From positions 1,472,001-1,536,000 of the forward strand of contig OY776215.1 of the NCBI GenBank assembly GCA_963675495.1: DNA of 64,000 nt, in the 5' to 3' direction. Source of the stretch: an uncultured Methanolobus sp. GTDB lineage: Archaea > Halobacteriota > Methanosarcinia > Methanosarcinales > Methanosarcinaceae. The first letter of the stretch is position 1; every line of letters starts with the position of its first letter. Below are positions 7,383 through 60,686 of the stretch, one piece after another. A program made the translations under genes and the position numbers. The notes under the pieces are model-generated. The model was not told the DNA's origin. It ran no database searches and worked only from the letters and a program-made list of their open reading frames with translations.

Positions 7383-8528
7383 TTATTGCTCTAGTCCAAG
7401 GTGGACTTTTCTAAACTCAGAATCCCTCATAAGACAGGGACCTGAAGTGAAAACAGGGTCTTTGTATATCTTTTTCCATATCGATGCTAAAGATTCATCG
7501 TGAATATTACCATATGGTTTCGGCATACATGCACACGGAAGTACATCGCCTTCAGGAGTTACATGAAGCCATTTCCTGCCTGCAAAACATCCCATTTTTC
7601 TTATGATCTGAGGAATAGGGAAAACGCGTGGTCCTTCAGCGTAAGATGTACGTTCTACAAAATCATCGAACTTTTTCAGGCCTTCGGGTGAAAGGACTTC
7701 ATTCCCATGGTCCAGCCACCTTCCAGTAGGAACTATCTCATAGAAAGAGAGTTCATGCACACCCAGCTCTTTTGCAAGCTCATAAAAATCGTCAAGCTCA
7801 TCAACATTTCTTGGCGAAAGAACAACATACATGCCAACTAAAAGACCGGCATCCAGACCGTTCTTTATGGCATTTACGGCATCATTGAATACACCAGGCC
7901 TTCCACGCATAAAATCATGTCCTTCTTCGTTTGCACTGTCAAAACTCACGCTTAGCATGGAAAGACCAGCATCCTTAAGGCTTGATGCACGCTGCGGAGT
8001 CATCCCCACACCAGATGTGAACAGACCCGCAATTGCGCGTGAACTATCTACATAGCTGATGAGCTCTTCAAGACCGTCATATAACAAAGGCTCGCCACCA
8101 TCGAATATAATGAGAGTGGTGCCCATATTCTGAGTCTGGTCGATGATACTCTTAACAACATCAGGACTGAGCCTTGCTTTGTTTTTAGTATCCGGGAGAG
8201 CACAGTGAATGCATCTGTTTGGACACTCTTCTGTAATTGAGATAGTGATCTGTTCCGGAATGAATTTGCCCCTCATTGCACTCATCTGGCTTGAAACAAG
8301 CCGGTCAAATGCCTTGCTGGGTATAGGAGGCATCCAGGTGGAGTATATTAACTGATCATTTTCCACTTTTGAGGGTTTTGTATCCTCAAATATCTCCATC
8401 ATCTCTGAAACATAAGAACCCATTATGGATGAAGCAATGCCGGAGGTCTTCATTTTCACCCGATCATTCTCTATCTGGGCATATACTTTGAAAAATGGAT
8501 TTTTGTAAAAGTAATATTTGTTCTTCAT
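7383..8528 (-). CDS. Radical SAM protein with SPASM/Twitch-type C-terminus
   Basis: CPNRCIHC, GGEP, CFAG...TPEGDVLPC. Confidence 0.9.
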   Translation of the reverse strand: MKNKYYFYKNPFFKVYAQIENDRVKMKTSGIASSIMGSYVSEMMEIFEDTKPSKVENDQLIYSTWMPPIPSKAFDRLVSSQMSAMRGKFIPEQITISITEECPNRCIHCALPDTKNKARLSPDVVKSIIDQTQNMGTTLIIFDGGEPLLYDGLEELISYVDSSRAIAGLFTSGVGMTPQRASSLKDAGLSMLSVSFDSANEEGHDFMRGRPGVFNDAVNAIKNGLDAGLLVGMYVVLSPRNVDELDDFYELAKELGVHELSFYEIVPTGRWLDHGNEVLSPEGLKKFDDFVERTSYAEGPRVFPIPQIIRKMGCFAGRKWLHVTPEGDVLPCACMPKPYGNIHDESLASIWKKIYKDPVFTSGPCLMRDSEFRKVHLGLEQ

Positions 8529-8531
8529 AGT

Positions 8532-9707
8532 TCACTTCGTCCTGAAGATAGCCCTGTACGAAAGTATTGAAGAGGGATTGTTTTTCAGTATCATCTTTGA
8601 CACCTGCAATGCCTGATTAAAAGGACTACCTCCAAGTACCTTCAAGTCCTCTCCTTCAAAGACCTTCATCATTTCGTCGATCTCCTTGTCGGTCATTTTC
8701 CTGAGAGTCTCCATGGCAAATCTTCCAAGGTAGTACTCTGTCCTGTATTCAGCATTCCATTTTCTTCTGTATTCAGAAAGGAAGCTCTTTGAAGTATCGC
8801 CTTTTGCAATTGCATCAGCTGCAACATCACCGCACATCTGCCCTGCATGCATACCATACCCGATGCCCGACTGGGCAGCAGAACCACCCACCACCATTAC
8901 ACCATCAGTGACTATATCACCGGGAATTGCAACAATTGGGTCACCACCTACAGATTTGCTGATTATCTTTACTTCATCAAGACCCTTTAATTCCTTGAAC
9001 TTTGCAAGCCAGTCATCAAAGAAATCAGAGACATCACGTCCGTGCCTTCGGACATACATTCCAAGGGTCGCCCTGTTACCACCACATGGTGAATAGGTGG
9101 ATTTCCACCCAGGAGCATGATTACCAACATAGTATTCGAACAGGTCTGGTTCACCAATGCCTTCTGCTTCGATCTCTGCTTCAAGGGACCAGGCTATGTC
9201 CTGTGGATATTTGATAGGTTTCATTCCAAGAAGGGCACTTATCCGTGAGTTTATCCCATCTGAAACAATAACGAGTTTGCACTTGATCTTACCCTTTGAT
9301 GTGCTTACTACAAATCCCCCATCAGCCCTTAGAACATTAAGTACCTCAATTCCGAAGCGAACATCTGCACCTGCTTCCTCAGCCTGATGAATGTAGAATT
9401 CATCGAATTTCTTACGGTCAAGGAAGTAAGCATCACCTTCAAAGATGACATTCTTACCAGAAGGTGATATTATGTAGGCACCTTTCAGGTTTTTGATGAC
9501 ATAACTCTGGTCTACTTCTTCACCTGTGCGGTCAAACATTCCTTTGAAAAATGTGTTTGCCGGATGAGGAGGTACACCTACTGCTTCCTTTTTATCGAGA
9601 AGGATAACTTTACAGCCTTTGGCTGATGCATTCCTTGCTGCCATGACTCCGGCAGGGGAAGCCCCTATTACAATGATATCTGCATCCATTTTGAACCTCT
9701 GGAACAA
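8532..9707 (-). CDS. Geranylgeranyl reductase-family flavoprotein (atypical)
   Basis: DIIVIGASPAG FAD loop, LDRKKFD, VSDGINS; motifs diverge from canonical DGGGPL reductase. Confidence 0.8.
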   Translation of the reverse strand: MFQRFKMDADIIVIGASPAGVMAARNASAKGCKVILLDKKEAVGVPPHPANTFFKGMFDRTGEEVDQSYVIKNLKGAYIISPSGKNVIFEGDAYFLDRKKFDEFYIHQAEEAGADVRFGIEVLNVLRADGGFVVSTSKGKIKCKLVIVSDGINSRISALLGMKPIKYPQDIAWSLEAEIEAEGIGEPDLFEYYVGNHAPGWKSTYSPCGGNRATLGMYVRRHGRDVSDFFDDWLAKFKELKGLDEVKIISKSVGGDPIVAIPGDIVTDGVMVVGGSAAQSGIGYGMHAGQMCGDVAADAIAKGDTSKSFLSEYRRKWNAEYRTEYYLGRFAMETLRKMTDKEIDEMMKVFEGEDLKVLGGSPFNQALQVSKMILKNNPSSILSYRAIFRTK

Positions 9708-9714
9708 CTAATTA

Positions 9715-10674
9715 TTACCATAATATACCGGAATATGCCGGAACAAGTATGCAAAGTATTACATCAAGTATAAGAGAACCAAACATGATACCCCTGTATC
9801 TGGAGCCCTGGAGAAACAGCCTGCCTCCACGCTCTTGTGTAGGGTTCTTAATAAAATCAAATGACTGTGTGAGCATCCACCCACCTGCAAGCAGTGCGCC
9901 TGCAAAATATATAGGTCCGATCTTTGCTGTAAGTCCGATGGCAATTGACGCTATGACACCTACAACCCACATTAGAGTTACGAACTTTGAGGTTGCAGGA
10001 ACACCAAAAGTAACCGGAAATGTCGGAGCACCCCGGGCCCTGTCGCCCTCTACATCCCTGGCAACACCAGAAAGAGTGAAACCCCAATCGGTGAAACACA
10101 TCATCAAGCCAAGGAATATAGCAGGAAGAGGGAGTATGGATCCATAATCGGGGCTCTTTAGAATACCGGCTGGATCAAACGCCAGCCAGATACCTATAGG
10201 CACGAGCCCGTAAGCTATCCCCACAGGCACAAAACTAAGAAATGTCATTCTTTTTGCAAGTTTTGAGTATACACTTATAGTAACGACTGCTATCACCAAA
10301 ACCACAAATGATTCAGGATTCAGGTAGAGGGCTGCTATGCTTGCAATTAAGAACAGCACACCTGCATACTTCATAGCTTGCTTACGGCTGAGTTTATTAG
10401 ATACAAGAGGACGATTCGGAAGGTTGATCGTGTCTATATCAACATCACAACAATCATTGTACACATAGGAACTTGTGATTGCGGCATAACCTCCTATAAC
10501 AGCTATAATAAAGAGCATTAGTTCCGGAAACGCACCTGTTGCAAGATAAGAAGCAAGTAAAGCACTTGCAGCAGGGAGGGCAAAATCCATGTCCGCTATT
10601 TCCGGCCTTAACATTTCAAGATAAGGATTTCGTGTTTTAGAGCCTGAAGTCGAAACCAAGTATATCATCACCAA
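9715..10674 (-). CDS. UbiA-family prenyltransferase
   Basis: NDCCDVDIDTINLPNRP and RDVEGDRARG Asp-rich motifs; multiple TM segments; true start may lie ~15 nt downstream. Confidence 0.9.
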   Translation of the reverse strand: MVMIYLVSTSGSKTRNPYLEMLRPEIADMDFALPAASALLASYLATGAFPELMLFIIAVIGGYAAITSSYVYNDCCDVDIDTINLPNRPLVSNKLSRKQAMKYAGVLFLIASIAALYLNPESFVVLVIAVVTISVYSKLAKRMTFLSFVPVGIAYGLVPIGIWLAFDPAGILKSPDYGSILPLPAIFLGLMMCFTDWGFTLSGVARDVEGDRARGAPTFPVTFGVPATSKFVTLMWVVGVIASIAIGLTAKIGPIYFAGALLAGGWMLTQSFDFIKNPTQERGGRLFLQGSRYRGIMFGSLILDVILCILVPAYSGILW

Positions 10675-10824
10675 TAGATTATAGGTTCTAATCTTCGGTA
10701 TTGTATATTAGTATTAGGGTAGTGTGGATTAAAAAATAGGATTGTGCTTAAGAGGAAAAATGGCAAATATCTGAATATCCACAGCATAAATTAAAGATAT
10801 TCAGATGTGTTCTCAAAATAGAGA

Positions 10825-12294
10825 TTACTCACTCTTCGGAGGAACAATTGTAAAGTTATCAAATTCTGCAAGTTTCTCCACCAGAGGATGATCGAACCTG
10901 TCATTCATAAGGAAAGTGAAGGTTGCCTTAGGGTTCAGTTCCACAAGCTTGATGGTATTCTGATAGGCAGTTTCAAGTGATTCATAGTCAGGGGTCCTTA
11001 CAACTTCTGCGTTAAGCGGATAGACCTCTGCAAGCTCCTGCGGATAAGAACCGAATGGTGGTTTGAACATCATGACATTGTCATAGTCACTGTCCTTCTT
11101 TGTTGGGTATGCCCTTATGAGCACAGAACCTTCTATGGTAAGTCTTTCAAGCTGCTTGCCAAAACGCAGAACTTCAGGACGCCTGGCAGACTCCGGACCA
11201 CAGTAGAATAGTGTGGATTTGGTTGAAGGGTCACATTCTTCCAGCCACGAGGAATAAGTGTACATCTGCTTAAGTGCTTCAAGCATTCTTGGATGAGCCC
11301 TGCACCTCTGCTCCACAAGTTCAAGGAGGTTGCCTTCCCATATGGCTTGCTTGACCTCGCGTACCTCTTCAAAAGTTACGTAAAGATTGTGTCTTGCAAG
11401 AAGTTCAGTACAGTTGTGAGCCTTTTTCAGGTCTTCCGCGCTGTGAGCTATACATACAGGACATGAACATGGCAGATACTTGAGCTGGTCTACATGATAG
11501 GTTCCTCTGGAAGTGATGTAACGCCTGTCCTTTGCATACAGGGCATACGCTGCTGAATCAAACAGGTCACATCCAAGAGCAACAGCAAGTGCGAACATCA
11601 TCGGATGTCCTGCACCAAACAGGTGGACAGGTGCTGTTGGGTCAAGTCCTTTCTTGGCTGAAGCAATTACATCAACAAGATCAGAATAACGGTAAGATTC
11701 CATCAGCGGGACCACAGCTCCAAATGGATAGACATCAAAGCCTACTTCTGAAAGTTCCCGGGCACACTCTTCACGGAGATCCTTGTAAATAGCACCCTGC
11801 ACCGGACCTGCCAGGAGCATATCACCTTTTACGAGTTCCCTTGCCTCCTTGAGACGCTGTATTGTGATATCCATATCTTCCTTTGCCTTTTCATAAGACA
11901 CATCAGGGTGTGTGGGAATATCCAGAGGAACGCCAATGTCAGTTCCGATCTTCTGCTGGAAATCGATTATCATCTCATTTGTGACCTCGACCTCACCATA
12001 AACTGACAACTGAAATGAGCCGGAGTCGGTCATTAGAGGACCATCAAAGTCAAGCAATGCGTGCAAACCGTCTTTCAATGCTTTTTCCCTTAATTCGTCC
12101 TTACGGTAAATGATGTATGAATTCGTGATAAGTATCTCAGCACCGAACTCCCTCATTTCAGAGGGTTTTACTGTCTGGATATTAGGATTGATAACAGGCA
12201 TTACAGTAGGGGTTTCAACCACTCCGTGTGGAGTTGTGAGCTTACCGATACGCCCTGCTGCATCCTTATGGATAATATCAAATTTTGATGACAT
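10825..12294 (-). CDS. tgtA: Archaeosine tRNA-guanine(15) transglycosylase (no C-terminal PUA domain)
   Basis: ETPTVMPVINP, TDSGSFQL, HLFGAGHP, DLFDSAAY, CSCPVC zinc site. Confidence 0.93.
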   Translation of the reverse strand: MSSKFDIIHKDAAGRIGKLTTPHGVVETPTVMPVINPNIQTVKPSEMREFGAEILITNSYIIYRKDELREKALKDGLHALLDFDGPLMTDSGSFQLSVYGEVEVTNEMIIDFQQKIGTDIGVPLDIPTHPDVSYEKAKEDMDITIQRLKEARELVKGDMLLAGPVQGAIYKDLREECARELSEVGFDVYPFGAVVPLMESYRYSDLVDVIASAKKGLDPTAPVHLFGAGHPMMFALAVALGCDLFDSAAYALYAKDRRYITSRGTYHVDQLKYLPCSCPVCIAHSAEDLKKAHNCTELLARHNLYVTFEEVREVKQAIWEGNLLELVEQRCRAHPRMLEALKQMYTYSSWLEECDPSTKSTLFYCGPESARRPEVLRFGKQLERLTIEGSVLIRAYPTKKDSDYDNVMMFKPPFGSYPQELAEVYPLNAEVVRTPDYESLETAYQNTIKLVELNPKATFTFLMNDRFDHPLVEKLAEFDNFTIVPPKSE

Positions 12295-14618: not shown

Positions 14619-15758
14619 CTAGTTATCTGAAACGTTCATTAAAGCCGCAAGTTCTAGGCCTTCACTACCAATGTCAGATAGCTGTTTGAACACCTCTGCT
14701 CTTGAGATGTATTTTTCTGTTCTTGTTTCGTCCGGTCGTTCTATTTTTATGGTGATCTCTTCCTTATTATAACCCTTATCGATACATTCTTTGATCAAAT
14801 CACCATAGTCTGCAGCGATTATTTTGAGACAATCGAATACCATGTTGCCATCTATTGCATCTTTTCCATCTATGAGCACGCGTGTGAGCACACGGGATTG
14901 AACAGCTACAGAAAAATACTGTTTCATTTTTTTCACCAGGAGTTGAATTTCTTCCTCTTCGAGGGATTCTGCTAGTACCTCATCAATAGTTATGTCATGA
15001 TCATTGTGGAATATCATAAAGGTGTTCTCATCAGCTATTATCTTGAATACATGATCAGAGTCATCATCTTTGAGAACTGCTTCGATGTGCTCATCCCCAT
15101 CATATTCCATTGATACGATATAATGGTCAGACAGGTCTATTTTTTTCACCTTATCTTCACGATGCAGTAAACCACCTGGTACCCACACCGGTAGCATTAA
15201 TTTTTTATAAATATCGTCTATTTTAAGTTCTTTGCTATTGAACTTTAGTTCAAACCAATACTCCATGTTTTCAGCAGAACAAATCTGCTTACCGCTGATA
15301 ATCTCATTTTCTTGTAAAAATGAATAGGTATCTATCGAATTATAGATAGATTCTTCAAAAAATGGATTAAGAAGAGATATTATCTTAGAGTTAAGTTGAT
15401 CTAGTTCAAAATCAGCAGTTTTCACATTCTCTTCGAGTTGCTTGCCTAAATCAATTCGTTTTTTGGAAGAAACGGAGACCATTGCTGCACTAATTTCATC
15501 CTTCATGTCTGTGATACCCAAAGATTCAATATTTGTAGCCAGATTCTGAACTGCCGCTGCAATACCTGTTTCAAATTCGTCTATACCCTTAATTTGAGAC
15601 TCAGTTGAAATGGTGTTCTTTTTCTTTTTTTCATTAAGTAGCCGTGCTGCTTTTTCAATAGGAATTGTTTCCTGCGATAATTTGATGAAATCCTGCAGGT
15701 CTTTAATAAAATCTCGCTGCACTGGCAATTCTGTTGAATCCTGAAATGTATATTTCAT
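14619..15758 (-). CDS. Hypothetical acidic protein
   Basis: 379-aa ORF with own start region; no motif recognised. Confidence 0.75.
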   Translation of the reverse strand: MKYTFQDSTELPVQRDFIKDLQDFIKLSQETIPIEKAARLLNEKKKKNTISTESQIKGIDEFETGIAAAVQNLATNIESLGITDMKDEISAAMVSVSSKKRIDLGKQLEENVKTADFELDQLNSKIISLLNPFFEESIYNSIDTYSFLQENEIISGKQICSAENMEYWFELKFNSKELKIDDIYKKLMLPVWVPGGLLHREDKVKKIDLSDHYIVSMEYDGDEHIEAVLKDDDSDHVFKIIADENTFMIFHNDHDITIDEVLAESLEEEEIQLLVKKMKQYFSVAVQSRVLTRVLIDGKDAIDGNMVFDCLKIIAADYGDLIKECIDKGYNKEEITIKIERPDETRTEKYISRAEVFKQLSDIGSEGLELAALMNVSDN

Positions 15759-16020
15759 TCAATAAACCCCGTCCTAGTATGTTGTTTACGAATAAATACT
15801 ATTGTAATAAAAAGCTACAACCTGAATCATTTGAAAATACGAAAAATAAGGAAAGCATATTCAGCCAATGTCAGAATCAATAAGAATTATCGTCACAAGC
15901 ATGCATACTCAAAACAATATTAGTTTAGATAACAAAAATCAATAATACCATAAAAAAAAATAGATTAGTTCAAGTTAAAATCATTGTAGAAAAAGAAAGC
16001 TAATAGTTAGTGTTGAGTGA

Positions 16021-16141
16021 GTTGGCAGCGATCCAGAGTTCCCGAAGACTCTCATACTTCAGTACAGTAAGGAACGCTGGCAGGCTTATCTTCTGTGTTC
16101 GGGATGGGTACAGGAATTGCCCCGCCGCTATGGCCGCCAAT
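16021..16141 (-). rRNA. rrf: 5S rRNA
   Basis: TTGGCGGCCATAGCGGCGGGG...CCCATCCCGAACACAGAAGATAAGCC...GCTGCCAAC; ends approximate. Confidence 0.95.
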
Positions 16142-16169
16142 CTCTCTCATGATGAATTGTAAATGGTAA

Positions 16170-16241
16170 AGCCAAGGTCCGGATTCGAACCGGAATGGAA
16201 TCGCTCTGCAGGCGATTGCGTAGCCGCTCCGCCACCTTGGC
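16170..16241 (-). tRNA. tRNA-Cys (GCA)
   Basis: GCCAAGG acceptor stem, AATCGC-CT-GCA-GA-GCGATT anticodon arm, GGTTCGAATCC, U discriminator. Confidence 0.96.
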
Positions 16242-16304
16242 AATGAGCGATTCATGATTGAATCCATTGAATTTATACTTTACCATAAGATTGCGTATAT
16301 TAAA

Positions 16305-16336
16305 CATGCACATATCAGATTTCGCCTGGACAAAGC
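16305..16336 (-). other. 3' strand of the 23S processing stem with bulge-helix-bulge (pairs with 19272-19303)
   Basis: Minus strand CTTTGTCCA-GGCG-AAA-TCTGA pairs with TCAGA-CGCT-CAC-TGGACAAAG. Confidence 0.8.
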
Positions 16337-16341
16337 AAGAC

Positions 16342-19255
<2,914 letters not shown>

Positions 19256-19387
19256 TACCAGAGTCCATCTCACTTTGTCCAGTGAGCGTCTGATATATGC
19301 ATGCATATACACGATCTCATTGCAGCTGTCGTTGCTTCAGCCACTTCATCCTTCCCCGAAGAAATTACTCTTCAGGTGCACTAATAA

Positions 19388-19460
19388 TGGACTTGTTGGG
19401 ATTCGAACCCAAGGCCTCCGCCTTGCAAAGGCGGCGATCTTCCAACTGATCTACAAGCCC
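19388..19460 (-). tRNA. tRNA-Ala (TGC), 16S-23S spacer
   Basis: GGGCTTG...CCGCC-TT-TGC-AA-GGCGG...GGTTCGAATCC...CAAGTCCA. Confidence 0.96.
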
Positions 19461-19564
19461 CTCTTGGACCCCTTTTACAGTGAATCCATGTAATTTTTCT
19501 CGGATCTGACAGTTTTTCGATTTCTGACCGGTTAGTGGTGATGGACTTTGTGTCCATCTTGCTT

Positions 19565-21039
<1,475 letters not shown>

Positions 21040-40510: not shown

Positions 40511-40829
40511 GGTGGCAGGCTAGTCTGGGTAGGCCGGCGTTACCTGTAACCCGAAATCGCCGATATGCGGGAGACGAAGCCTGAAGAAGATGTTTGGACC
40601 ATTTTCAAACCTGTGATTTCAACTGAGAAACCCCGTCCTGCTTGGATGACGTTGGTATATGTGCTTGTTGGAGAACTTGTTCGTATACCTTAACCGTGAG
40701 AACCAGTCCAGGCCCGGAAGGGAGCAGACCAACCGCAGACAATTATCGCTTGGAGGGTTGCGGGGTGGAGAAGAGATTGCAGATCACCTGAAAGTGGAAA
40801 AAATAGCGACTTTGGGCGTGCCTGTCACT
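40511..40829 (+). ncRNA. ffs: Archaeal SRP (7S) RNA
   Basis: Helix-8 CAGGCCCGGAAGGGAGCA; paired termini GGTGGCAGG/CCTGTCACT; ~320 nt. Confidence 0.93.
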
Positions 40830-40884: not shown

Positions 40885-40969
40885 GACGAGATAGCCAAGC
40901 CCGGTATGGCGCAGGATTGCTAATCCTGTGATGCTTTGCGTCTCGGGGGTTCGAATCCCCCTCTCGTCG
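40885..40969 (+). tRNA. tRNA-Ser (GCT)
   Basis: GACGAGA stem, CAGGA-TT-GCT-AA-TCCTG, long variable arm, GGTTCGAATCC. Confidence 0.95.
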
Positions 40970-59399: not shown

Positions 59400-60686
59400 T
59401 TACTTGCAAAGGTCGTAACTCTGGTTTACGATTTTAAGAGCGCAGAAATCACCGCACATTGTACATGCATCTTCGTCTGCTGATGCTCTCTCAGTTCTTA
59501 CCTTTCTTGCGAGTTCTGGATCGAGTGCAAGCTTGAACTGTGCCTCCCAGTCAAGTTTTGCGCGTGCTCTACCCATTGCAAGATCAACATCACGAGTTTC
59601 TGGGAACTTGACAGTGTCACCAACGTGAGCTGCGATCTTTGATGTCTTGACACCTTCAATAACATCTTCAAGGTTTGGAAGTGCAAGGTGTTCTGCTGGT
59701 GTTACATAGCAAAGGAAGTCACAGCCTGCTGCTGCAGAAGCTGATGCACCGATAGCTGTTACGATGTGGTCACGACCGGCACCGATATCAGATACAAGAG
59801 GACCGAGCATATAGAATGGTTTTCCATCACTCATTGCTTTCATGAGCTTGACATTTGTTTCTACCTGGTCAAGTGGTACGTGACCTGGACCTTCTACGAT
59901 AACCTGAAGATCGTATTCGTCATGTGCTTTCTGTGCACATTCAGAGTTGATGATGAGTTCCTGAACCTGTGCCCTGTCGGTTGCGTCGGCGATTGCACCT
60001 GCACGCATTCCGTTACCTGTTGAAAGGGTAACTTCGTGTTCCTTGAGGATCTCACAGAGATAATCAAAGTCCTGGTAAAGTGGGTTTTCCTTCTCATTGT
60101 GAAGCATCCATGTGCTCATGAATGCACCACCACGGGAACAGAGACCACCGTATCTACCGTGTGCCTTCAGTCTGTCAAGGACAATGTTGTTGACACCTGT
60201 GTGAATAGCCATAAAGTTTGTTCCGAGCTTTGCCTGCTCCTCGGTTGCATGCCAAAGGTCGTCCTCTGTCATGTGAACAATAGAACCATCTCTCCTTGAT
60301 GCGGTAATGAATGCCTGGTAGAGTGGTACTGAACCAACTGAAAGGGAAATTGAATCACAGACCTGTTTCCTGATACCAAGGAAATCTCCACCGGTACCGA
60401 GCTCCATAAGTGTATCAGCACCTGCTGCCTCTGCTGCCTGTGCCTTTTTGATTTCCATATCGACATCAACGATATCTGATGATGCACCGATGGATGCATT
60501 GACCTTTGTCTTGAGTCCTTCACCGATACCACAGAGTTTGATGTCCCTGTATGGGGTCATAGGGATTACAATTCTACCTGAAGCAATTCCACGTCTGATG
60601 AATTCAGGGTCTTTGCCTTCTACTTCAGCAACGATCTTCATCTCTTCTGTGATCTTACCATTTTTTGCATCTGTTACTATTGTCAT
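59400..60686 (-). CDS. thiC: Phosphomethylpyrimidine synthase ThiC family
   Basis: KVNASIG, SRGG, EGPGHVP, YVTPAEHL.LP, CTMCGDFC. Confidence 0.9.
   Translation of the reverse strand: MTIVTDAKNGKITEEMKIVAEVEGKDPEFIRRGIASGRIVIPMTPYRDIKLCGIGEGLKTKVNASIGASSDIVDVDMEIKKAQAAEAAGADTLMELGTGGDFLGIRKQVCDSISLSVGSVPLYQAFITASRRDGSIVHMTEDDLWHATEEQAKLGTNFMAIHTGVNNIVLDRLKAHGRYGGLCSRGGAFMSTWMLHNEKENPLYQDFDYLCEILKEHEVTLSTGNGMRAGAIADATDRAQVQELIINSECAQKAHDEYDLQVIVEGPGHVPLDQVETNVKLMKAMSDGKPFYMLGPLVSDIGAGRDHIVTAIGASASAAAGCDFLCYVTPAEHLALPNLEDVIEGVKTSKIAAHVGDTVKFPETRDVDLAMGRARAKLDWEAQFKLALDPELARKVRTERASADEDACTMCGDFCALKIVNQSYDLCK

Follow-up and report, generated by a model that had tools for sequence, protein, structure and literature searches.

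A UbiA, flavoprotein and radical SAM gene set in Methanolobus as a candidate methanophenazine biosynthesis module

In Methanosarcina-type methanogens, and probably also in marine methane-oxidising archaea, methanophenazine (MP) is the membrane carrier of electrons in energy metabolism; the first isoprene unit of its side chain is saturated. Do three adjacent genes in the genome of an uncultured Methanolobus encode its synthesis? The genes lie on the minus strand in the window, as we call the whole stretch of 64,000 nt that was analysed (contig OY776215.1, positions 1,472,001 to 1,536,000), which belongs to a complete single-contig genome of 2.87 Mb and whose nearest protein relatives bear Methanolobus names. 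They encode a UbiA-superfamily membrane prenyltransferase (P0001), a divergent FAD flavoprotein resembling geranylgeranyl reductase (GGR-like; P0002) and a radical SAM enzyme (P0003, here rSAM-A), and a first-pass annotation made from the sequence had proposed that they perform missing steps of the MP pathway. We estimate the probability that the three genes form a dedicated MP biosynthesis module at about 60%.

In MP, an ether bond joins 2-hydroxyphenazine to a side chain of 25 carbons (C25; PMC3017947). The cited section of Arshad et al. (2015; PMC4683180) describes its pathway as unknown, that of a November 2026 paper (PMC13748539) describes it as unresolved, and genome studies of uncultured archaea rely on the side-chain synthase alone (PMC9478090). 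With no marker genes available, such studies cannot tell whether uncultured archaea use MP. A defined gene set would give an MP marker for genomes, would allow genetic and enzymatic tests in tractable Methanosarcina strains, would offer possible targets for controlling methane formation, and might reveal radical chemistry that makes phenazine without oxygen. Unnamed ubiA genes have been speculated to serve MP synthesis in sections of two earlier studies (PMC6315138; bioRxiv 10.1101/2022.07.20.500911), and no published assignment of these three genes was found in the literature searched, supplements of two expression papers aside.

Analysis of 301 genomes of the class (300 genomes and the window's own) revealed that the three-gene set and the menaquinone pathway are mutually exclusive. 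Orthologues were counted at E<=1e-10 for UbiA, E<=5e-69 for rSAM and E<=1e-40 for the GGR-like protein, MqnA/MqnD were scored by PF02621, and family names were taken from the source labels of exactly matching proteins. Each of the three genes was present in 133/133 Methanosarcinaceae genomes (parts of this family are labelled Methanimicrococcus and Methanolapillus), in 12/12 genomes of the ANME-2 cluster and in 3/3 of Methermicoccus; in a further family, f6, UbiA was found in 11/12 genomes, and rSAM and GGR-like in 12/12. Methanothrix carried rSAM in 105/105 genomes, the GGR-like gene in 91/105 and UbiA in 100/105, one of the latter (G080) at paralogue level only. PF02621 was found in none of the ANME-2 cluster (0/12), f6 (0/12) and Methermicoccus (0/3) genomes, and gave four marginal matches of ~26 bits, in 3/133 Methanosarcinaceae and 1/105 Methanothrix genomes; searching with it revealed no MqnA/MqnD in the complete Methanolobus genome. 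Conversely, strong PF02621 matches occurred in 32/32 genomes of Candidatus Methanoperedens (a label borne by 7/8 genomes looked up), 2/2 of Methanoperedenaceae and 1/1 of family f5, and UbiA (at orthologue level), rSAM and GGR-like (at the above thresholds) were each found in 0/32, 0/2 and 0/1 of these genomes, respectively. The matches to the three genes in these 35 menaquinone-pathway genomes were at paralogue level or lacking, with best E values for rSAM of only 4e-14 to 4e-33.

In a sample of 401 genomes of the phylum, where UbiA orthologues were counted at E<=1e-30, the gene was present in 52/52 Methanosarcinaceae, 2/2 ANME-2 cluster and 12/12 Methanothrix genomes. Outside the class it occurred in two more families only, f11 (3/4), which belongs to another class, and f34 (3/3); representatives of both also carried rSAM and GGR-like orthologues and no PF02621. 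The other phylum families (~30 families, 327 genomes) yielded no UbiA orthologue. Published work on the carriers runs in parallel. The menaquinone pathway was reported for Methanoperedens and not for other Methanosarcinales, and no MP spectrum was seen in a Methanoperedens culture, according to the cited section of Arshad et al. (PMC4683180); near-axenic Methanoperedens contained menaquinone, with MP undetectable, in that of the November 2026 paper (PMC13748539). For ANME-2a/b/c/3, which lack the futalosine pathway, MP was inferred by Chadwick et al. (2022), whose cited section places this pathway, among marine ANME, in ANME-1 only (PMC9012536). Gut Methanosarcinales have lost most energy complexes and kept the Vht-MP-HdrDE chain in the account of Protasov et al. 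(2024; PMC11362671, in part), and in relatives of these genome-reduced gut Methanosarcinales the operon is intact (locus L057). Apart from the exceptions described below, the set was found in lineages with known or presumed MP, and neither in those where menaquinone replaces it nor in those without a membrane carrier. The first-pass annotation had suggested a comparison with MP producers as a check and had regarded an operon common in methanogens without MP as fatal to its proposal; the profile fits MP-type lineages, with the operon not found in Methanoperedens, and no such commonness was seen (0/327).

A further link concerns geranylfarnesyl diphosphate synthase (GFPS), the sole enzyme tied by experiment to MP (Ogawa et al. 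2010, as cited in PMC3017947 and PMC9478090). In the Methanolobus genome, ~0.9 Mb from the operon and outside the window, the end of a polyprenyl synthase gene is overlapped by the gene for rSAM-B, a paralogue 38.7% identical to rSAM-A. The best NCBIfam model for this synthase is GFPS_Meth, and ahead of its first DDxxD motif it has small residues at the position that Phe takes in the GGPP synthase of this genome; its Methanosarcina orthologues, likewise followed by rSAM-B, pass GFPS_Meth with 621.3 and 615.1 bits (cut-off 600). GFPS and rSAM-B were adjacent in 7/7 Methanosarcinaceae, 3/3 Methanothrix and 4/4 f11 loci, so that in three families the synthase gene stands directly before an rSAM-A paralogue, and the order CcmE-GFPS-rSAM-B-ATPase was kept in 6/7 Methanosarcinaceae loci examined; in f6, CcmE-GFPS alone was kept (2/2 loci). 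GFPS itself is not adjacent to the operon. The surrounding locus (L084, genome 2380075-2392000) contains hemB, hemA, precorrin-2 dehydrogenase, an AhbD-like gene, CcmE, the GFPS candidate, rSAM-B and an A-type ATPase.

Within the window, the ORF (open reading frame) list agrees with the earlier description of three co-oriented genes with gaps of 7 and 3 nt: UbiA at 9715-10674 (319 aa, TTG start as called), the GGR-like flavoprotein at 8532-9707 (391 aa, TTG start as called) and rSAM-A at 7383-8528 (381 aa, ATG start), all on the minus strand. Orthologue lengths and alignments indicate that P0001 probably starts at the ATG at 10668, and P0002 probably starts at the ATG at 9689, since its orthologues begin MDAD...; the 7-nt gap thus stands for the ORFs as called and becomes 25 nt with the latter start. 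The tight packing of the three genes is unaffected by the choice of start codons. The products of all three genes score below every named NCBIfam equivalog cut-off, and by their sequences the enzymes represent new subfamilies of known superfamilies.

Comparison of loci revealed that gene order shifts among lineages while links between the three genes persist. The order TGT-UbiA-GGR-rSAM, in which TGT denotes tRNA-guanine transglycosylase, was found in 10/10 Methanosarcinaceae loci representing ten genera, whereas UbiA and GGR are adjacent in the ANME-2 cluster, UbiA and rSAM in Methermicoccus, and GGR and rSAM in f11. The genes are scattered in f6, where UbiA follows an ATPase subunit gene, and in the ANME-2 cluster rSAM-A and a gene for cytochrome c assembly are two genes apart. 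Family f34 shows UbiA-rSAM-GGR, then ThiC and a second, distant UbiA. This second UbiA (L066 15357-16307, L079 563-1441) is 28-32% identical to P0001, and its best NCBIfam matches are DGGGPS and heme O synthase, far under cut-off. Genomes of f11 encode a UbiA of 66-69% identity, the GGR-like protein, three rSAM paralogues and GFPS, and in both loci examined (two genomes) a gene for an iPGM-like metalloenzyme comes directly after the GGR-rSAM pair. ThiC was considered as a partner in ring synthesis; the f34 copy, between the GGR-like gene and the second UbiA in L066 and L079, and the window copy (59400-60686, minus) both pass the ordinary ThiC model, the latter as a ThiC equivalog, and the link was therefore dropped. 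A ThiC paralogue lies at genome positions 708420-709685.

P0001 belongs to the UbiA superfamily (PF01040, 150.1 bits; cut-off 34.2). Its Asp-rich motifs NDxxDxDxD and RDVEGD are invariant across 11 orthologues, and an alignment of 12 sequences shows little or no variation at N71-D72-x-x-D75-x-D77-x-D79 and R204-D205-x-x-G208-D209. The nearest solved structure is digeranylgeranylglyceryl phosphate (DGGGP) synthase 6m31 (E 3.1e-14), which shares the fold family and both Asp-rich motifs and forms an ether bond by O-prenylation, the chemistry that we propose for P0001. However, P0001 scored 88.1 bits against the DGGGP synthase (DGGGPS) equivalog NF009521 (cut-off 296) and 81.8 against NF009522 (cut-off 353), and remained likewise under the cut-offs for heme O synthase (78.9; 210.3), the 4-hydroxybenzoate (4-HB) octaprenyltransferase model (78.3; 364) and MqnP models (54-70 bits, best 70.1 with cut-off 430; cut-offs 375-430). 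Of the five UbiA genes in the genome, another one, at 1301092-1301943, passes NF009521 with 373.7 bits as the canonical DGGGPS, is 24% identical to P0001 and carries REIVKDIEDIEGD. In alignment A3, SGVARDVEGD of P0001 aligns with REIVKDIEDIEGD with a 7-residue deletion, and the REIxKDxEDxxGD context of the second DGGGPS motif is absent from P0001; the earlier remark that this motif lacks the DGGGPS context therefore holds. The distribution of P0001 is also restricted, whereas DGGGPS is universal in archaea. Protein atlas matches for P0001 were generic UbiA clusters only, and a quick UbiA tree showed a tight orthologue clade, paralogues on very long branches and no informative sister group. Judged by these scores and motifs, P0001 is a distinct UbiA subfamily and not a DGGGP synthase, as the first-pass annotation had suspected. 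The separate canonical enzymes that it expected elsewhere in the genome were recovered as the DGGGPS above and three ordinary GGR paralogues. A fifth UbiA-family frame (genome 1834088-1834899), most like DGGGPS-type models, is split by TGA and may represent a disrupted gene or a frameshift.

The second protein, P0002, scored 127.2 bits against the GGR model TIGR02032, under the cut-off of 158.8, whereas the three ordinary paralogues among the four GGR-family genes in the genome pass it (211-243 bits); against the MenJ model it scored 34.6 bits (cut-off 700). The nearest solved structure is 3oz2 (E 1.8e-27). Alignment of 13 P0002 orthologues with the three ordinary GGRs (A2) revealed Pro in 13/13 orthologues where the ordinary GGRs have Cys (Cys in 0/13), GAS(P/T/A)(A/S)G in 13/13 in place of GAGPxG, and APGWK(S/T/A) in 13/13 replacing the aromatic YxWxFP-type motif, together with a 6-residue deletion after GG(A/S)(A/C)G(Q/E), a motif whose first-G position deviates in 1/13. 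The Cys near the flavin and the YxWxFP-type motif are important for GGR catalysis. The earlier label of prenyl reductase thus stands as similarity to a GGR-like flavoprotein and fails at the level of the TIGR02032 cut-off and of the GGR Cys and motifs. A Methanosarcina GGR characterised by Ogawa et al. (2014) acts on the omega-terminal double bond, according to part of a 2024 review of archaeal GGR paralogues, in which methanophenazine is unmentioned (PMC10821996).

The third protein, rSAM-A, belongs to the radical SAM superfamily (PF04055, 82 bits; cut-off 29.5) and matches the SPASM domain (PF13186, 35.3 bits; cut-off 21.5). In 15 aligned sequences C102/C106/C109 (CxxxCxxC) are invariant, and so are, in the SPASM/twitch-like C-terminal part, only C314, C332 and C365; a full SPASM set comprises about seven Cys for two auxiliary clusters. 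A conserved N-terminal extension of ~90 residues contains the invariant motif S63-x-W65-x-P67-P68-x-P70, and no Pfam family matched the N-terminal 95 residues. The nearest named relatives, AhbD, NirJ and the decarboxylase BlsE (7voc), share with P0003 the CxxxCxxC core and, at the C-terminus, a domain of the auxiliary-cluster type. Unlike AhbD and NirJ, P0003 has its own N-terminal extension and three invariant C-terminal Cys, and its best NCBIfam scores (AhbD 124.2, NirJ2 122.9 bits) are a quarter of the cut-offs of 500. The genome also encodes a distinct AhbD-like protein (2384038-2385084), and two full-length rSAM-A paralogues (2386658-2387902 and 2228822-2230024; 38-39% identity) contain the same S-x-W-x-P-P-x-P motif. 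Distant relatives in the group of P0379, P0409 and P0416 are fused to UbiE/COQ5-type methyltransferase domains, and others show NAD-binding reductase or glycosyltransferase fusions or tandem radical SAM repeats; no UbiA, GGR or polyprenyl synthase domain was found among the fusion partners of these distant relatives.

The following division of labour would account for these features. In UbiA-type catalysis an allylic diphosphate is ionised and the resulting cation can be trapped by an oxygen nucleophile, as happens in DGGGPS; chlorophyll synthase, which like DGGGP synthase belongs to the UbiA superfamily, also O-prenylates. UbiA with geranylfarnesyl diphosphate and a phenol is therefore a plausible ether-forming step, and P0001 would take the C25 geranylfarnesyl chain, made by the GFPS whose gene lies outside the operon, and attach it to the hydroxyl group of 2-hydroxyphenazine or of an earlier phenolic precursor. 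Since a saturated first unit could not be installed before the transfer, a reductase acting afterwards is needed; the GGR-like flavoprotein would use the prenylated compound as its substrate, the simplest reaction being saturation of the first isoprene unit, and as the neighbouring flavoprotein it is the obvious candidate despite an active site predicted to be unlike that of ordinary GGRs. The bacterial phz pathway makes the same ring system as MP; no PhzF was found in the complete Methanolobus genome, nor was PhzA/B in a search that had no positive control. Without PhzF the ring needs another route, and because no bacterial phz-type genes were found we propose that rSAM-A and its two paralogues perform oxygen-independent ring-making or ring-tailoring steps, for which the three proteins, with a predicted small-molecule-like auxiliary site of three invariant Cys, are candidates. 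PhzF has been reported in only some MP-containing methanogens (PMC5244752, in part). The futalosine pathway of menaquinone synthesis follows the same logic, with the UbiA-type MqnP, the radical SAM enzymes MqnC/MqnE and GGR-type side-chain reductases yielding a membrane carrier; its MqnA-D proteins, however, have no orthologues in the operon, and its product is a C-prenylated naphthoquinone rather than the proposed ether-linked phenazine. The pathway-level idea of the first-pass annotation thus gains from the observed families, co-occurrence, adjacency, menaquinone complementarity, separate DGGGPS and GGR genes and GFPS link, whereas each substrate and reaction named above is inferred.

Several observations weigh against the assignment to MP. 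Fourteen of the 105 Methanothrix genomes lack a GGR-like match at 1e-40, three of them being at least 94% complete. The genomes in our counts are kin and hence not independent, and the pattern reduces to few independent events, namely one related group without the genes (Methanoperedens, Methanoperedenaceae and f5) and two outlying families with them. No McrA was found in the three f11 genomes carrying the whole set (0/3; 92-100% complete), so that the product is not tied to methanogenesis, while f34 genomes contain several divergent McrA copies. HdrE was not found in f11 and f34 (0/5), in a weak test with one Methanolobus query and no positive control; Pfam PF02665 barely detects even the genome's own HdrE (21.6 bits). 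P0002 may not be a prenyl reductase, because the Cys of ordinary GGRs is absent and its score is below the GGR cut-off. The rSAM family is wide (2434 representative clusters at E<=1e-30), its nearest named relatives, AhbD and NirJ, act on hemes, and GFPS and rSAM-B are flanked by heme synthesis genes, CcmE and the ATPase operon. Finally, the ANME-2 cluster, which carries the operon genes, lacks a GFPS orthologue, because the sole polyprenyl synthase match per genome (as in loci L058, L059, L074 and L075) is at paralogue level (~1e-30; 12/12 genomes).

What else could the three genes make? It is unlikely, though the least so among the alternatives, that they make or tailor another isoprenoid with no electron-carrying role, for instance a modified ether lipid (a C25 'extended' archaeol), a polyprenol or a different membrane regulator. 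The nearest structures of P0001 and P0002 are both lipid enzymes (6m31 and 3oz2), GFPS could equally supply C25 lipids, and f11 has the set without McrA. Canonical lipid enzymes are nevertheless encoded separately, the gene surroundings involve heme, cytochrome c maturation and ATP synthase rather than lipid genes, and the distribution mirrors the menaquinone pathway rather than any lipid trait known to us. Methanoperedens, moreover, contains archaeol, hydroxyarchaeol and GDGTs (glycerol dialkyl glycerol tetraethers) as its relatives do (PMC6581649, in part), yet lacks the three genes, and this likeness speaks against a lipid product. We give slightly less credence to the view that the module makes an MP-related or a second membrane redox carrier, the true MP genes lying elsewhere. 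It would suit the occurrence of the set in f11 and f34, lineages never measured for MP, and the lack of a GFPS orthologue in the ANME-2 cluster, so that lineages may vary in chain length or in the product itself; the GFPS link and the exact fit to lineages with known or assumed MP nonetheless make MP the simplest product in Methanosarcinaceae.

Less probable again is a modification of heme or another tetrapyrrole for cytochromes, giving a prenylated, heme O-like cofactor. Several sources name the orthologues 'protoheme IX farnesyltransferase', the best NCBIfam matches of rSAM are the heme enzymes AhbD and NirJ2, the GFPS and rSAM-B genes adjoin hemA, hemB, the AhbD-like gene and CcmE, and the cytochrome c assembly gene lies close to rSAM-A in the ANME-2 cluster. 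The scores for heme O synthase and AhbD are, however, far short of the cut-offs, the genome has a separate AhbD-like gene, and we know of no report of a prenylated heme in methanogens, no search having been aimed at it. The genes are also missing from Methanoperedens, which is rich in b- and c-type cytochromes (PMC4683180, in part). That UbiA is a second DGGGP synthase in an operon for ordinary archaeol synthesis would agree with the common superfamily and with a GGR-family neighbour recalling the lipid pathway, but the tests run here already contradict it: the equivalog scores and the 7-residue deletion point away from DGGGPS, the canonical gene lies elsewhere, and no P0001 orthologue was found in the 327 genomes of other phylum families, all of which need DGGGPS.

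Returning to MP, a more speculative extension of the module, which we regard as possible and rather doubtful, is a six-gene core of GFPS, UbiA, the Cys-less GGR-like protein and the three rSAM paralogues with their unique N-terminal domain that would constitute a new oxygen-independent route to prenylated phenazines. Radical chemistry would form the ring without phz-type enzymes, perhaps on an already prenylated precursor, and this carrier, or one closely similar, would also serve archaea other than methanogens, namely f11, without McrA, and f34, with its several divergent McrA copies.

Upstream of the operon, the intergenic region 10675-10824 (minus, 150 nt) contains an AT-rich, TATA-like taatatac ~40 nt before the ATG and, on direct reading of the sequence, is possibly the operon's own promoter. 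A 39-aa ORF in this region was considered as a precursor peptide for rSAM; its conservation was not seen beyond the genus, and since the rSAM N-terminus matches no Pfam family either, nothing points to a peptide substrate. The archaeosine-type TGT gene (10825-12294, minus; PF01702, 322.5 bits) adjoins the operon upstream in all ten Methanosarcinaceae loci and not in the loci of other families, and is probably outside the pathway. Downstream of the operon are genes for a DUF7121 coiled-coil protein, a HAD phosphatase and Mtd. Elsewhere in the window, a 379-aa ORF (14619-15758, minus) has no Pfam match at E<=1e-5. A complete rRNA operon occupies 16020-21039 on the minus strand, with the small-subunit rRNA at 19565-21039, the large-subunit rRNA at 16340-19266, the 5S rRNA at 16020-16141 and tRNAs at 19388-19460 and 16170-16241 (minus), and accounts for the rise in GC content to 51% there. 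An archaeal signal recognition particle (SRP) RNA at 40513-40827 on the plus strand is followed by a tRNA at 40885-40969.

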